Below are positions 6,280-14,693 of a stretch of DNA of 38,715 nucleotides, one piece after another. The stretch lies in assembly GCA_002778535.1 (NCBI GenBank), contig PFBP01000039.1:5695-44409 (forward strand). Reading direction: 5' to 3'. The notes beneath the pieces are model-generated. The model did no database searches, had not been told where the DNA came from, and saw only the letters and a program-made list of their open reading frames with translations. A program made the position numbers and the translations under genes. This stretch comes from Candidatus Kuenenbacteria bacterium CG10_big_fil_rev_8_21_14_0_10_36_11. Its GTDB lineage: Bacteria; Patescibacteriota; Patescibacteriia; UBA2196. Numbering within the stretch: the stretch's first letter is position 1; each line of letters starts with the position of its first letter.

Positions 6280-8226
6280 ATGGAAAATAAAAATATGCAC
6301 TCCAACAAACCAAAAAATAGTGAGGTTGATGCCTACACTTACATAAAAGAGGAATTAGAAAAACTTGGTTGGAATGTTAAAAATCCCGCTAGATTTTTAG
6401 AAGGAGAAGTTTATAAGCAAAATGAAGTAATGGCTAACGATGAACTTAAAAAATGTCTTGGCAGAGATATGCCAGAGGCAGTTGTTAAATTAAAAGAAAA
6501 TTTTTTTTGGGTTATTGAAAGTAAAAGAAATAAAAAGGATATTAGTAAAGCGCTTGATGAGGCAAAAAATCAATATGCTAAAAAAATAAATCAAAGCAAA
6601 CAAATAAAATGCGTTTTGATTTCTGGAGTTGCTGGTAACGGTAGCGATGGTTTTGTTGTAGAGAATCAAGTTTTAAAAGATGGTTTGTGGAAAACAATTT
6701 TATTTGAAGAAAAAAAGACAAAAAATATTTTACTTTCAAAGAAACAGATCGACTTTATTTTTAATAAAGAAAAAAAAGAAATTTTGGAAAATAAAAATGA
6801 AATTCTTTATAAAAATCTTCCAGATGTTCCAGAAGAAAAATATATTGAAGTTGCGGAAGATATAAATGAACTTCTGCATAATTACGGAATTAATAAAAAC
6901 AAAAGGGCAAGATTTATTGCGGGTCTTGTCTTGGCATACTCCGCAGGGGAGATTGAAAGGCAAACAGAAAATACAATAACGCTCGTCAAAAATATAAATA
7001 ATTTAATAGAACAAAAATTAATTGAAGTTGAAAAACCAAATTTTCTTAATTTTCTAATATTGGAAGTTCCGCCAGTTAGAGAAAATCATAATAAATACAG
7101 GCAAGCAATAAAAGAAACATTAAATAAATTAGATACTCTTGATATTAAAAACGCAATGAATTCCGGCAGGGATATTTTAGGAGAGTTTTATGGAAAATTT
7201 TTGAAATATGGAAATGGAGCTAAAGAAATTGGAATTGTTTTGACCCCAAGACACATAACCAAATTTGCCGCTCGGGTTTTAAATATCAGTTCAAATGATT
7301 TTGTTTTGGACCCTGCTTGTGGTTCCTCGGGATTTTTAGTTTCTTCCTTTGATTATGTTAAAGCAAATTCAAATATAAACGAAATTGATAAATTTAAAAA
7401 TTACAATCTTTTTGGCATTGAACAAGAAGATGAAGTTGTCGCGCTGGCTCTTGTCAATATGATTTTTAGAGGGGACGGAAGGAATAATATGAGTCCTGGA
7501 AATTGTTTTTATAAAAATATTTTTAAAACGACAAAAAATGGAAATTTAACTGGCGAATTTAAACTTGAACAAGAGTATGTCCATGAAAACAAAAATCCAA
7601 TAATTACAAAAGTATTGATGAATCCGCCGTTTGCGCTTAAAAACTCAAAAGAAAAAGAAAAAGATTTTATTAATTATGCTTTATTACAAATGCAGGATAA
7701 TGGAATTTTATTTGCAATTGTGCCAATTTCTGTGATGGTTGAGGGCAGTGGCAAAATATGGAGGAAAGAATTATTAGAAAACCATACATTATTATCAGTT
7801 ATAACTTTTCCAGAAGATCTTTTTTACCCCGTAAGCGTTGGCACGGTTGGCATCTTTATTAAAAAAGGCATTCCTCATAATTTTGGAAAACAAAATGTTT
7901 ATTTTGCAAGAACAATAAGCGATGGGTTTAGAAAGAAAAAAGGGAAAAGAATTTTTAATGAAAATTTTGAAAACAAGCTTGAAGAAGTGGTGGATGAATT
8001 AAAAGCATTTCTTGTAAATCAAAACTTAAATCTTAAAGATGTGCCGGAATTAAAAAGGATATGCTTACTAGATAAATTTGATACTGGTATTGAATTGGTA
8101 CCAGAAGCGTATATTGAAAGCAAAATCCCTACCTTAAACGAAATAGAAAGCGGAGTTGAAGAAATGATAAAGGAAGCTCTTGCATTTAAAATTAAATACT
8201 CTGATAAACTTGAAGGTAAAAAATAG
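6280..8226 (+). CDS. Fused PD-(D/E)xK nuclease-like N-domain and gamma-class N6-adenine DNA methyltransferase (type IIB BcgI-A-like or HsdM-like)
   Basis: The N-terminus has GWNV...GRDMPEAVVKLKENFFWVIESKRNKKD, an HsdR_N-type PE...ExK motif. Methylase motif I (VLDPACGSSGFLV, preceded by LTPRHI) comes before motif IV (NPPF). Visibly more AT-rich than its neighbours. Confidence 0.7.
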   Translation: MENKNMHSNKPKNSEVDAYTYIKEELEKLGWNVKNPARFLEGEVYKQNEVMANDELKKCLGRDMPEAVVKLKENFFWVIESKRNKKDISKALDEAKNQYAKKINQSKQIKCVLISGVAGNGSDGFVVENQVLKDGLWKTILFEEKKTKNILLSKKQIDFIFNKEKKEILENKNEILYKNLPDVPEEKYIEVAEDINELLHNYGINKNKRARFIAGLVLAYSAGEIERQTENTITLVKNINNLIEQKLIEVEKPNFLNFLILEVPPVRENHNKYRQAIKETLNKLDTLDIKNAMNSGRDILGEFYGKFLKYGNGAKEIGIVLTPRHITKFAARVLNISSNDFVLDPACGSSGFLVSSFDYVKANSNINEIDKFKNYNLFGIEQEDEVVALALVNMIFRGDGRNNMSPGNCFYKNIFKTTKNGNLTGEFKLEQEYVHENKNPIITKVLMNPPFALKNSKEKEKDFINYALLQMQDNGILFAIVPISVMVEGSGKIWRKELLENHTLLSVITFPEDLFYPVSVGTVGIFIKKGIPHNFGKQNVYFARTISDGFRKKKGKRIFNENFENKLEEVVDELKAFLVNQNLNLKDVPELKRICLLDKFDTGIELVPEAYIESKIPTLNEIESGVEEMIKEALAFKIKYSDKLEGKK

Positions 8227-8228
8227 CT

Positions 8229-9164
8229 ATGATAACAACAATCGGACAATTATTTAAAATAGAATACGGACAAAAAGAATACCACAATAAAGAGTGGCTT
8301 GAAGGAACTGAAGGAAAAAATATTTTGGTTTCATCAAGAGGCGATGATAGCGGAGTTTTTGGTTTTTTTGAAATTGAAAATAAATTTAAGGCACCAGTCA
8401 TAACAGTTCAGGGATATGGAACAATTGGGCAAGCATTTGTCCAAGAATATGATTGTTCGGTAGACGATCATCTTTTGGTTTTGATTCCAAAGGATAAATT
8501 AACTATGGAGGAATTATATCAAGTTGCTTTCCAAATTAGATTAGATAAATGGAGATATAGATACGGCAGAGGAATTACCCCTGATAGGTTATCAATTCAA
8601 AAAATTAGTTTGATAGAAAGTAAATTAAGTTATGATAAACTTTCCAAAAAATTTCTTCCTGAAAAAAGCAAAAAGATAAAAGTTTTGGAAAATAAAAATG
8701 TTAAGTTAATCAAAGTTAATGATCTGTGTGATATTCAAAAAAAAACAGCTTTGCCTCAAAACGCTTTAGAAGAAAACGGCACGCCCTATGTAACTACAAC
8801 CTCAAAAAATAATGGTATTTCTAATTTCGTAAATGAAGAACCAAATACTAAAGCAAAATGTTTAACAGTGGCTCTTAATGGTAGTGTTGGGGAAACATTT
8901 TTTCAATTTGATGATTTTATCACAAGTGGCGATAATGCTGTTCTCACTCTGAAAGAGAAGTATAACCCCTACTTGTTATTTTATATTGGGGCAATGATAA
9001 AAAATCATCAGTGGAGATATAATTATTACAGAAAATTAAATCTTTCAAAATTGAAAAAAATGACGATTCCCACTCCGTACAAAAAAGGGAATATAGATAT
9101 TGATTATATTGAAAAAATTACTAAAAATTCTTATGGATTTGAGGAGTTAAAAAAGTTTTTTTAG
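8229..9164 (+). CDS. Restriction-modification specificity subunit (HsdS / BcgI-B-like, two target-recognition halves)
   Basis: Starts 2 nt after the methylase stop. Has two similar halves (about aa 1-130 and 160-300), each with a (V/T)x(Q/L)GxxG-type block and an FxQ... block, joined by a K-rich linker. No HsdR-type helicase gene is nearby. Confidence 0.55.
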   Translation: MITTIGQLFKIEYGQKEYHNKEWLEGTEGKNILVSSRGDDSGVFGFFEIENKFKAPVITVQGYGTIGQAFVQEYDCSVDDHLLVLIPKDKLTMEELYQVAFQIRLDKWRYRYGRGITPDRLSIQKISLIESKLSYDKLSKKFLPEKSKKIKVLENKNVKLIKVNDLCDIQKKTALPQNALEENGTPYVTTTSKNNGISNFVNEEPNTKAKCLTVALNGSVGETFFQFDDFITSGDNAVLTLKEKYNPYLLFYIGAMIKNHQWRYNYYRKLNLSKLKKMTIPTPYKKGNIDIDYIEKITKNSYGFEELKKFF

Positions 9165-12573: not shown

Positions 12574-12670
12574 AATCATTTTAACATAGTAATAAAAAAA
12601 ATAGGTTGAGGCCTGTTTTTTTGATTCTTTTTTGTTTGCTTGTTTATTTTTTAGATGATATAATGATAAT

Positions 12671-13900
12671 ATGAAAAACTATTTAGATAGAATTTTAGAA
12701 ATTAGCAAGCCATACTTAAAAGATGTTTTTGGCGTTGAAAAAAATCAGGAATTTATTAAAAAAATTGCCATAGTAAAAAAAATAAAAAATAGACAAGAAA
12801 TAATTACAAAATTTTCAGAGATTTATATTAATTTTATTAAAGAAATTTATCAGGAACAATATAAAAATACCAATAAAGAATTGATTAAGTTTATTGCGCA
12901 AAAAGATGATGGCGTTAAACTTGTTTGGGGGGATTGTTTCAATGTATTAAGAGGTATGAATTCTGAATCAGTTCATTTAATTGTAACTTCGCCACCATAT
13001 TATAATGCCAGAGAATATTCCCAGTGGAATGATTTGCATGACTATTTGAAAGATATGCGAAAAATTATTGCTGAGTGTTATCGCGTTCTAGATAACCATC
13101 GAGTTTTTGTTTTTAATGTCGGAGATATTTTTGATAATGATAATTTAAACACTAAGTCCGTTTGGGGCAAAAGACGGTTACCACTCGGTGCTTATTTTAT
13201 AAAAATTTTTGAGGAAGAGGGTTTTACTTTTGTGGATGATTTTATTTGGGACAAAGGCGAAGTGCAAAGCGAACGTCACAAGAACGGCGATAAACCATAT
13301 CCTTTTTATCAATACCCCATAAATTGTTATGAACATATTTTGATTTTTCATAAACATCGTTTGGATAATACGCGCTATCCTTGCCCTGTGTGTGGAACTC
13401 TGAAAGTTAACGGCAATACCCAGTCAGAAATTGGACTTCGCAGTTGGGAGTGTAAAAATTTAGGATGTTTTGAAAGAAGTAAAAGCAATCGCGGCAAAAG
13501 ATTTTCTTTAAAAACATTAATGACTCAATCAAGTCAAAAATCAGAGTTTGCGATACCAGAGGAATTTGTTAAAAAGTGGCGTCGTGATATAATTAAATTC
13601 AGTCCAGTAATAAAAATAAATAGCAAAGGAGAAAATTTATTAGGTCATACTGCCCCTTTCCCAGTAGAAATTCCAGAATTTGCAATAAAAATGTTTTCTT
13701 ACCCAGGCGATTTAATTTTGGATCCTTTTGGCGGCAGCTTTACCTCCGTGATAGTGGCTAAAAAATTAAAAAGAATTGGTGTGGGTATTGAATTAAATAA
13801 AGAAATGTTTAGAGATGCAAGTATTAAAAATATTCAAAACAATTTTCAACCGGTCTTATTTAATGGCAAAACATTAAAAATTTCAGAATTTAATTTTTAA
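12671..13900 (+). CDS. Beta-class N4-cytosine/N6-adenine DNA methyltransferase with zinc-ribbon insert
   Basis: Motif IV (IVTSPPYYNAREY) lies N-terminal and motif I (LDPFGGSFTS) C-terminal, with HTAPFP just before motif I. A CPVC...CKNLGC ribbon sits in the intervening region. AT-richer than its flanks. Confidence 0.8.
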   Translation: MKNYLDRILEISKPYLKDVFGVEKNQEFIKKIAIVKKIKNRQEIITKFSEIYINFIKEIYQEQYKNTNKELIKFIAQKDDGVKLVWGDCFNVLRGMNSESVHLIVTSPPYYNAREYSQWNDLHDYLKDMRKIIAECYRVLDNHRVFVFNVGDIFDNDNLNTKSVWGKRRLPLGAYFIKIFEEEGFTFVDDFIWDKGEVQSERHKNGDKPYPFYQYPINCYEHILIFHKHRLDNTRYPCPVCGTLKVNGNTQSEIGLRSWECKNLGCFERSKSNRGKRFSLKTLMTQSSQKSEFAIPEEFVKKWRRDIIKFSPVIKINSKGENLLGHTAPFPVEIPEFAIKMFSYPGDLILDPFGGSFTSVIVAKKLKRIGVGIELNKEMFRDASIKNIQNNFQPVLFNGKTLKISEFNF

Positions 13901-13910
13901 TAAAAATAAT

Positions 13911-14645
13911 ATGCCTAACAAAAAAAGAGTTAGAACTACCATTGACTTAAACACAAAACATTTTTCTCGCTATGGAGAATTTTTAGTTTCTTTTGAATTG
14001 TCAAAACATGGCTGGAATGTTTATAGCCCTGTTTATGATGAGTATATTGATTTTATTATTCATAAACATGTTTGTCATGATTGCGGATTAAATTGGAATT
14101 TGACGCCAGCGTTGGTGTGTAAAAAATGTGGCAAGGATTTTTCTAAAACGCAAAAAAATAACATCATTGCCAAAAAAATTTGTTTAAAATGCAAAAAAGA
14201 AATGATTGGCAATAAAAAGAATTGTCCTAAATGTCAGAGCGAAGAATTATTTAATATGCCAACTTGCGATAAGTGTGGCGGAGAAGTAGAAATGAGGGAA
14301 CATGCTTGCGGTTGCGGCAGTAAAAATTATGAAACAAAATTCCGCACCATTCAAGTCAAAAGTTCACGAGTAGAGTCAAAAGATGGCAAGTCAAAAAATA
14401 CTTATGCGGTAGATATGAAGCCAAGGGATTTAATTAAAGATAAAACCCATTTTTATATTTGGTGTTTAGTTGATAATAATGATAAGTCGCATTTTTTGGT
14501 CTTATCAGTAGAGGACTTTAAAAAAAATATGGGTGAATCAATGAAAGGGATTTCATTTTTTAAAGATCAAGATCGCCAGCATTTTAGCACTAATGACTTT
14601 GGTAAATGGAAAATATTTTTAAATAAATTTTACAAATTAGAGTAG
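13911..14645 (+). CDS. Putative restriction endonuclease: PD-(D/E)xK-like core split by three zinc ribbons
   Basis: GEFLVSFEL (E23), YIDFII (D47) and TIQVKSS (Q148-x-K150) fit the nuclease core. Between D and QxK are five CxxC pairs plus CGC (aa 55-135). Lies 10 nt downstream of the methylase on the same strand, and a terminator follows. Confidence 0.45.
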   Translation: MPNKKRVRTTIDLNTKHFSRYGEFLVSFELSKHGWNVYSPVYDEYIDFIIHKHVCHDCGLNWNLTPALVCKKCGKDFSKTQKNNIIAKKICLKCKKEMIGNKKNCPKCQSEELFNMPTCDKCGGEVEMREHACGCGSKNYETKFRTIQVKSSRVESKDGKSKNTYAVDMKPRDLIKDKTHFYIWCLVDNNDKSHFLVLSVEDFKKNMGESMKGISFFKDQDRQHFSTNDFGKWKIFLNKFYKLE

Positions 14646-14653
14646 AAAAAAAC

Positions 14654-14678
14654 AGCCAGAAAAATCTGGCTTTTTTTT
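14654..14678 (+). terminator. Rho-independent terminator (A-run upstream, so potentially bidirectional)
   Basis: AGCCAGA-aaaa-TCTGGCT followed by TTTTTTT. Confidence 0.7.
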
Positions 14679-14693
14679 GTTTTAATTGTCTCT

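Follow-up and report, generated by a model that had tools for sequence, protein, structure and literature searches.

The window, as the whole analysed stretch is called below, comprises 38,715 nucleotides of contig PFBP01000039.1 of Candidatus Kuenenbacteria bacterium CG10_big_fil_rev_8_21_14_0_10_36_11. It contains a two-gene unit in which the gene of a putative DNA methyltransferase (methylase) is followed by an open reading frame (ORF) encoding a 244-aa protein (Table 1). Exactly 10 nt (13901-13910) separate the two genes, and the unit is closed by a hairpin with a stem of 7 bp, including 4 G-C pairs, after which comes TTTTTTTT. In the preliminary description of this DNA, the 244-aa protein was considered a putative restriction nuclease with a PD-(D/E)xK core split by a triple zinc-ribbon insert; its placement of the ORF 10 nt after a beta-class SPPY methylase gene and upstream of a terminator was correct in coordinates and gap. 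The analysis of sequences and predicted structures presented here makes it likely that the two genes constitute a type II restriction-modification cassette, in which the predicted nuclease core carries three putative zinc ribbons.

Table 1. Features of the two-gene unit (positions within the window).
Feature	Position	Strand	Basis or remark
Methyltransferase gene, 409 aa	12671..13900	+	Beta-class N4/N6 type, SPPY motif IV; predicted cognate modification enzyme
Cys4 motif of the methylase, C238-x2-C241 ... C261-x4-C266, in the variable region	13382..13468	+	Conservation
Predicted restriction endonuclease gene, 244 aa plus stop, ATG start	13911..14645	+	ORF
N-terminal half of the PD-(D/E)xK core, residues 1-54	13911..14072	+	Model, conservation, phrog_5018 match
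85-residue Cys-rich insert, residues 55-139, three CxxC...CxxC (or CxC) ribbon units	14073..14327	+	
Ribbon 1, C55, C58, C70, C73	14073..14129	+	Best conserved of the three; all four Cys invariant
Ribbon 2, C91, C94, C105, C108	14181..14234	+	Most variable of the three; Cys conserved
Ribbon 3, C119, C122, C133, C135	14265..14315	+	C119 lost only in P0106
C-terminal half of the core, residues 140-244, including Q148-x-K150 and the conserved tail motif	14328..14642	+	
Intrinsic-terminator-like hairpin plus T-run closing the two-gene unit	14654..14679	+	Hairpin 14654..14671

The putative catalytic residues of the 244-aa protein, E23 in GEFLVSFEL, D47 in YIDFII and Q148-x-K150 in TIQVKSS, occupy the positions that had been given for them. 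A search of 5.8 billion proteins yielded 187 homologues, the best 120 of which are 64-83% identical to the 244-aa protein. They originate from bacteria of the candidate phyla radiation (CPR), WOR-3, Deltaproteobacteria, Clostridia, Altiarchaeales and Pacearchaeota. None of them has a functional name, and wherever the source names a homologue, it is a "hypothetical protein"; among 30 nuclease relatives that were looked up, none was named and none came from UniProt. In the alignment of 40 homologues, D47, Q148 and K150 are invariant, as are E29, D43 and E44, and E23 is nearly invariant (>90% conserved), so that the proposed active site is retained by the family. Eleven of the 12 cysteines of the insert are also invariant, and the twelfth, C119, is >90% conserved. 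Because the pattern of cysteines and active-site residues is conserved across these 40 homologues, it is not a product of chance. The C-terminal motif SF(F/L)KDQDRQHF...GKW is fixed as well. Mean pairwise identity is 0.84 and 0.73 in the two core flanks compared with 0.70, 0.52 and 0.58 in ribbons 1, 2 and 3, respectively. No Pfam, NCBIfam or PADLOC family covers the core flanks, and a sequence search against the PDB, performed with the full protein and with an insert-free profile, gave spurious Cys-rich matches or nothing.

The structure of the 244-aa protein was modelled using the AlphaFold2 program (mean predicted local distance difference test score (pLDDT) 84, predicted template modelling score (pTM) 0.70). 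The model contains helix 15-32, strands 36-38 and 48-55, the insert, strand 140-153, three more strands and helix 200-211. E23 and the invariant E29 are located on helix 15-32, D47 at the start of strand 48-55, and Q148 and K150 in the C-terminal half of strand 140-153. The insert itself is modelled as five short strands with pLDDT of 81-92. From this secondary structure we infer that the D and ExK strands would form an antiparallel pair and that the insert departs from the distal end of the hairpin. The model and the alignments described below correspond to the alpha-beta-beta-beta-alpha-beta core fold of the PD-(D/E)xK superfamily, and, judging by conservation and the modelled secondary structure, the acidic residues and the (D/E/Q)xK motif are in the expected strands.

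Comparison of the full model with the PDB in the Foldseek program repeatedly gave SPARDA DREN, DpnI, NhoI, PvuII and Hjc, all of which are PD-(D/E)xK nucleases. The alignments to DREN and to the 116-residue Hjc span about 220 columns and therefore bridge the insert. The full-length matches are weak because the insert disturbs the alignment, a problem that was solved by modelling an insert-free relative, P0128 (pLDDT 87, pTM 0.81). For this model, Foldseek indicated similarity with DREN (E 8e-5) and I-Ssp6803I (E 2e-4; target-normalised template modelling (TM) score 0.57-0.67), followed by Hjc, EcoRV and PvuII; its matches in a viral library were PD(D/E)XK endonucleases and resolvases. With I-Ssp6803I, Hjc and DREN as the top fold matches of the insert-free relative, the fold agrees with the "Hjc/homing-endonuclease-like" one suggested in the preliminary description.

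Profile comparisons lead to the same fold. Residues 14-52 of the full-length protein match phrog_5018. After deletion of residues 55-139 in silico, the remainder aligns to phrog_5018 as one stretch (positions 3-125 of 134, E 3e-12). It also aligns as one stretch (positions 2-115 of 138, E 8e-4) to PF11645 (PDDEXK_5), the only Pfam family matched by the insert-deleted protein, with a score of 19.9 bits that is below the cut-off of 26.1. PF14280 (DUF4365) does not match the 244-aa protein with or without the insert, and the cut-off of this family is cleared by P0159, a distant insert-free relative (27.9 vs 24.3 bits). Weaker matches among the insert-free relatives are PDDEXK_5, UPF0102/YraN and Mrr_cat. 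Thus, strands 48-55 and 140-153 flank the insert in the model, and the sequence freed of the insert aligns without interruption, which supports the conclusion that the two predicted half-cores reassemble into a single PD-(D/E)xK domain interrupted by the insert. The D and QxK strands are normally joined by a short hairpin, as had been supposed: the distance is 13-18 residues in the insert-free relatives and 101 residues here. As for the Q-x-K variant of the motif, Q62 and K64 were proposed by alignment as the active site of TmuRE, a DUF4365 nuclease, and the Q62A/K64A mutant was the inactive control built in that study (PMC10810196).

The Cys-rich insert contains 12 cysteines within 85 residues, while only one Cys is found in the other 159 residues of the protein. 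The cysteines form the motifs CHDC(55), CKKC(70), CLKC(91), CPKC(105), CDKC(119) and CGC(133) with the spacings C55x2C58-11-C70x2C73, C91x2C94-10-C105x2C108 and C119x2C122-10-C133xC135. All six motifs reported earlier are therefore present and conserved, and they would suffice for three zinc ribbons with predicted zinc binding. Each unit has the pattern of a zinc ribbon, namely, two knuckles, a hairpin between them and four ligands, and strands are predicted between the knuckles. Local Foldseek matches of the insert are the zinc modules of L40e, reverse gyrase and MCM. Pfam ribbon families match below the cut-off (DZR_2, 21.7 vs 27 bits; DZR, 18 vs 27.3 bits), and a precomputed PF18912 match is present on some homologues. 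Since CxxC...CxxC pairs often go with HNH sites (PMC4081073), the Cys-rich segment could itself be an HNH (beta-beta-alpha-metal) site with non-catalytic flanks. This appears extremely improbable, given that relatives devoid of cysteines keep the E/D/QxK residues and that the number of ribbons varies from 0 to about 4. The HNH assignment was rejected because no conserved His is present in residues 55-139; N101 in a "GN" turn is the only nearly invariant Asn of the insert.

The variation of the insert was assessed by searching 1.84 billion cluster representatives exhaustively with a profile. The 71 relatives found were classed by the distance between D and QxK. A spacing of 13-18 residues without cysteines is characteristic of 12 proteins of about 115-430 aa. 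Eleven proteins with a spacing of 37-54 residues contain 3-5 cysteines (usually 4), corresponding to one ribbon. The 244-aa protein (spacing 101) and three others belong to the class with 98-121 residues and 9-15 cysteines. The longest spacing, 132-145 residues with 16 cysteines, was found in P0129 and P0134, the former having another Cys-rich insert in a second loop. In addition, five long relatives (P0135, P0141, P0142, P0154 and P0161; 369-486 aa) have the core at the N-terminus and a C-terminal array of 10-21 cysteines in CxxC pairs; P0135 and P0142 lack the hairpin insert, and the remaining three also have one hairpin ribbon. These long proteins are a different way to combine the core with ribbons. 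Ribbons have repeatedly been combined with the core, at three different sites, which suggests that the core benefits from them functionally. Insertions in the PD-(D/E)xK core mostly tune substrate binding or protein contacts according to one review (PMC3424549), and the Cys4-Zn motifs of restriction enzymes are often structural according to another (PMC4081073).

Two further relatives, P0124 and P0156, run from the end of ribbon 1 ("KIIAKK") straight to "NYTTKFRSVQVKSS" and then into a frameshifted tail. Judged by sequence, ribbons 2 and 3 have been cleanly deleted in these natural variants. P0156 starts with a methylase fragment (HLMVTSPPYF), and both proteins appear to be rearranged, decaying copies.

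The 409-aa product of the upstream gene matches PF01555 (N6_N4_Mtase) with E 3e-38. The SPPY motif occupies residues 107-110, and the S-adenosylmethionine (AdoMet) motif DPFGGSFT residues 351-358; motif IV precedes motif I, and the protein therefore has the beta-class order. The best methylase profile match is the 912-position PADLOC profile MTase_II PDLC03236 (E 7e-94), which we take to be the M.BslI profile from its length, as M.BslI comprises 912 residues. An orthologue with 74% identity, P0214, carries the source name "Modification methylase BslI". The product of the methylase is predicted to be N4-methylcytosine because the motif is SPPY rather than DPPY, which is a rule of thumb. The CxxC...CxxxxC motif noticed earlier in the variable region is invariant in 27 distinct gene pairs (C238, C241, C261 and C266), and this Cys4 motif is kept in the methylase partners of one-ribbon and four-ribbon relatives.

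The completeness of the methylase, which is a stand-alone enzyme with its own variable region, bears on the possibility that the 244-aa protein serves the methylase as a DNA-binding specificity or regulatory subunit, having retained a nuclease-like fold but lost its catalytic activity. The ribbon array does resemble a DNA-binding module, and the QxK motif is substituted in some insert-free relatives. Such a role is nevertheless very improbable, considering that D47, Q148 and K150 show no variation, and E23 hardly any, in a clade distributed over many phyla.

Exact-protein look-ups together with a scan of 185,579 species genomes provided 41 loci. On its own, the scan gave only 31 loci, which means that the family is rare. 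An orthologous methylase (57-77% identical) directly adjoins the nuclease gene in 36 of the 36 loci with a full-length homologue; the other loci are contig-end truncations or gene remnants. The association with an adjacent methylase, on which the preliminary description relied, is thus seen at every readable locus. The gene order is mostly tandem, methylase before nuclease, and the ORFs often overlap. The convergent order (nuclease, then methylase on the opposite strand) is represented in, among others, Pacearchaeota, Nitrospiraceae and Deltaproteobacteria. In one of two more distant clades that were sampled, the one-ribbon nuclease P0158 overlaps the end of a 408-aa orthologous methylase with 59% identity. 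Pairwise divergence of the methylases correlates with that of the nucleases (r = 0.63; 351 pairs, 27 gene pairs). Therefore, the nuclease is adjacent to and co-inherited with the methylase, as is expected of a type II system. No second conserved small gene was found at the loci, and in the window the single 244-aa ORF is followed by the terminator.

The same data were considered in relation to a modification-dependent (type IIM/IV-like) nuclease that would attack foreign DNA bearing another modification and whose gene only happens to adjoin that of a methylase. This idea draws on similarity in fold to DpnI, NhoI and the N-terminal domain of Eco15I, all of them modification-dependent enzymes, but these matches are weak (E >0.1), and the adjacency, strictly one-to-one, and the parallel divergence with one methylase family are the signature of a cognate pair. 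The layout of the loci of a relative, described below, also disagrees with it, and we regard a modification-dependent nuclease as highly improbable.

At the loci of the four-ribbon relative P0129 (L047-L049), a 76-aa HTH_3/HTH_31 gene overlaps the start of the nuclease gene. The methylase gene is convergent, and the catalytic part of its product is 66% identical to the methylase of the window. By sequence this is the classic controller-nuclease/methylase layout with a helix-turn-helix (HTH) gene resembling those of controller proteins (C proteins). The controller gene known from type II systems is thus present at the loci of a relative, and the window contains no C-protein-like gene. The partner methylase of P0129 (L047 4919-6841, minus strand; also L048 and L049) consists of 640 aa, with a complete LexA-like module (LexA_DNA_bind plus Peptidase_S24) fused to its N-terminus. 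A self-cleaving LexA-type repressor fused to the methylase could tie the system to the SOS response.

In one lineage (L007/L008) the pair may be decaying. The methylase gene has an in-frame premature stop (L008 3767-4942), with more breaks in L007, and the nuclease ORF of L008 (5001-5762) is intact but encodes the substitution C119Y. This nuclease (P0106) represents the only loss of a zinc ligand in the 40-sequence alignment. Such a combination would be expected if decay of the methylase had to be preceded by inactivation of the nuclease; it is a single case, and the nuclease may have been disabled first here.

These two observations are relevant to a methylase-associated nuclease that does not restrict DNA, for instance, a Vsr-like mismatch-repair endonuclease that repairs damage where DNA is methylated or a selfish homing-type nuclease that travels together with the methylase. 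The best relatives of the core include junction resolvases as well as the homing endonuclease I-Ssp6803I/PF11645. Vsr, which is encoded beside a methylase, is a small nuclease that resembles restriction enzymes and contains a structural zinc; its partners, however, are C5-cytosine methylases, and the methylase here is an SPPY amino-methylase. A review lists Vsr as a variant site associated with Cys4-Zn motifs (PMC4081073). A C-protein-like gene overlapping the nuclease start, as in the P0129 loci, is a hallmark of toxic restriction genes, and only the lineage with the broken methylase has a damaged zinc site in the nuclease, as if an unprotected nuclease were harmful. No intron or intein context was seen that would suit a homing nuclease. 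Taken together, a non-restricting nuclease of this kind seems quite improbable.

According to the preliminary description, both proteins may use zinc ribbons for target recognition. The nucleases with one, three and four ribbons share no more than 33% identity, whereas their partner methylases are 56-65% identical overall and 56-66% identical in the variable region (residues 231-300), with the motif YPCPxCG...SWECKN..CF.RS..NRGKRFSL preserved. These methylases likely share one specificity, and if they do, the number of ribbons does not set it. Since the insert varies (0, 1, about 3 or about 4 ribbons) while the methylase stays similar, the ribbons alone are unlikely to set the specificity. Target reading by the ribbons is thus mildly disfavoured by the sequence comparison. 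If the methylases share their specificity, a clamp, a spacer-spanning arm or a subunit-contact arm would be more likely than direct reading of bases.

Several observations weigh against the restriction-modification reading or narrow it. The curated restriction-enzyme models of PADLOC and NCBIfam match neither the 244-aa protein nor 10 diverse relatives. The best Foldseek match of the full model in the PDB, SPARDA DREN, has an E of 0.016. In two insert-free relatives R replaces K150, and in one C replaces Q148. Moreover, no insert-free relative was seen beside a methylase at the loci that could be examined, the remaining ones being on contigs too short to judge the context; for this reason, a function in restriction may be confined to the clades that bear ribbons. 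Specific avoidance of CCN7GG, the site of BslI, was not seen in host DNA, where this spacing is as frequent as others (ratio 0.95, an uninformative comparison).

As for the context of the insert-free proteins, P0159 is beside a HEPN-domain gene, and P0128, in which the catalytic K is replaced by R, is just 3' of what seems to be the C-terminal end of an HsdS-like (type I specificity) subunit (L043 434-1788, L045 3-797). The minimal insert-free domain may serve other defence contexts.

A target site was also sought by counting palindromes in the window and 29 host loci (258 kb in total). GATC is depleted (observed/expected ratio 0.38, low in 30 of 30 loci), as are GGCC (0.43) and CTAG (0.44), and the six-letter palindromes GATATC (0.55) and CATATG (0.36) are low too. 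Assignment of a target site from palindrome avoidance was rejected: depletion of GATC, GGCC and CTAG is generic among prokaryotes, and the comparison has no system-free control genomes. The depletion probably reflects the many restriction systems of these organisms and is not attributable to this pair. Phage and plasmid records contained no relative of the nuclease; the methylase relatives found there are distant and partial (<45% identity), and because they are only distant, no specificity can be transferred from them.

The hosts of the family include CPR bacteria, Bacteroidota, Cloacimonadota, Nitrospiraceae, Altarchaeum, Pacearchaeota and Methanosarcinales, and the neighbourhood differs each time. 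Depending on the lineage, the neighbours are housekeeping genes, transposases or AbiE-type defence genes. On a Pacearchaeota contig (L004 1-3174), the pair is beside two AbiEii-type toxin genes and their partners in a defence-gene cluster. In the window, the pair has the gene of a TypA/BipA-like GTPase on one side and that of a UvrD-like helicase on the other. A close relative of the host is represented by L050, in which TypA is 90% and the helicase 74% identical; the slot is occupied there by an unrelated acidic 169-aa ORF (7971-8480), and homology stops just past the TypA stop codon and restarts at the helicase start codon. The pair was found in none of 80 TypA loci. The region between the TypA and helicase genes seems to act as a hot spot of variable cargo, and the cassette is most likely mobile and was acquired horizontally between housekeeping genes.

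A perfect extended -10 element (TGATATAAT) is located at positions 12656-12664 and ends 6 nt 5' of the methylase ATG at 12671. It was missed by the promoter scan because no -35 hexamer fits. The position of the element suggests that the predicted methylase-nuclease operon transcript is leaderless or nearly so.

Among characterised enzymes, the nearest architectural precedent is R.DpnI. Its PD-(D/E)xK domain binds one Cys4 zinc, two ligands of which are in the hairpin between D53 and E64-x-K66 (PMC3424567). R.DpnI (PDB 4kyw) thus has a structural Cys4 zinc in the same D-to-ExK hairpin, and it shares a conserved Glu on the upstream helix. In contrast to the 244-aa protein, it has a single zinc formed by two short CxxC motifs, with the other two ligands before D, and not three autonomous ribbons. 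DpnI is also methyl-dependent, monomeric and equipped with a winged-helix domain; the fold match is weak (E 0.15), and no sequence similarity was found.

The DREN/DUF4365 domain of SPARDA (PF14280; PDB 9qcc, 9jt2, 9vx6) is the best fold match and has the same Q-x-K variant (PMC10810196). DREN is, however, fused to APAZ and, once activated by a short Argonaute, degrades DNA without specificity; it has neither a zinc insert nor a methylase partner. I-Ssp6803I (PF11645; PDB 2ost) is similar in fold and in the size of the core (about 140-150 residues), but it is intron-encoded, has a long target and lacks both zinc and a methylase. With archaeal Hjc and the PvuII/EcoRV-type restriction enzymes, which contain no zinc modules, the minimal PD-(D/E)xK fold is shared at the level of weak fold similarity (E 0.01-0.1). 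M.PvuII is, for its part, a beta-class SPPY N4-cytosine methylase.

The nearest precedent at the level of the system is BslI (CCN7GG), as M.BslI is the closest named relative of the methylase and one orthologue bears this name in its source record. M.BslI is said to have been described by Hsieh in 2000 as a beta-group N4-cytosine methylase. The methylase of the window differs in having 409 aa, not 912. R.BslI (CCNNNNN|NNGG) is an alpha2beta2 enzyme that requires Zn2+ for its Cys4 structural motifs (PMC4081073), and the classification of 2008 left its two subunits, BslIA and BslIB, without a fold (PMC2441816). Here, in place of two subunits, a single ORF precedes the terminator. The remark of the preliminary description that the architecture was not recognised from characterised type II enzymes therefore requires qualification: the nested three-ribbon form is unusual, but R.DpnI and R.BslI are partial precedents.

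In the type II system proposed here, the M.BslI-like methylase would mark the host copies of the target sequence, and the 244-aa protein would be the matching endonuclease with a small PD-(D/E)xK core of the DUF4365/DREN and I-Ssp6803I type. E23, D47 and Q148-x-K150 would bind Mg2+ and cut unmethylated DNA. The hairpin between D and QxK, enlarged by 85 residues, would form three Cys4 zinc ribbons projecting from its far end. Most likely, these ribbons would serve as an accessory DNA-gripping or subunit-contact arm and not as the sole reader of the sequence.

A broader reading, which we consider unlikely, treats the family and R.BslI together: the minimal core would carry a ribbon arm of variable copy number as a tunable clamp or ruler or as a dimerisation element, R.BslI being a split version. 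The arm would comprise 0, 1, about 3 or about 4 hairpin units, a unit in the second loop or a C-terminal array, with a near-constant methylase, and it might span the unspecified spacer of a bipartite CCN7GG-like site. R.BslI would then consist of a zinc-bearing N-terminal half and a QxK-bearing C-terminal half.

The understanding of restriction-modification is unchanged by these data. Both the kind of system and the catalytic superfamily are known; what has been found within this well-known kind is an unannotated family with an unusual nested architecture of variable copy number. The 244-aa protein is a candidate new restriction enzyme, partnered by a probable N4-cytosine methylase. The natural series of 0 to about 4 ribbons on one core offers a way to ask what nested zinc modules add, and the comparison is a possible route to classifying the R.BslI subunits. 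For the family itself, the results provide a fold, an active site and a probable role for about 190 "hypothetical proteins" outside curated families, mostly from uncultivated bacteria and archaea.

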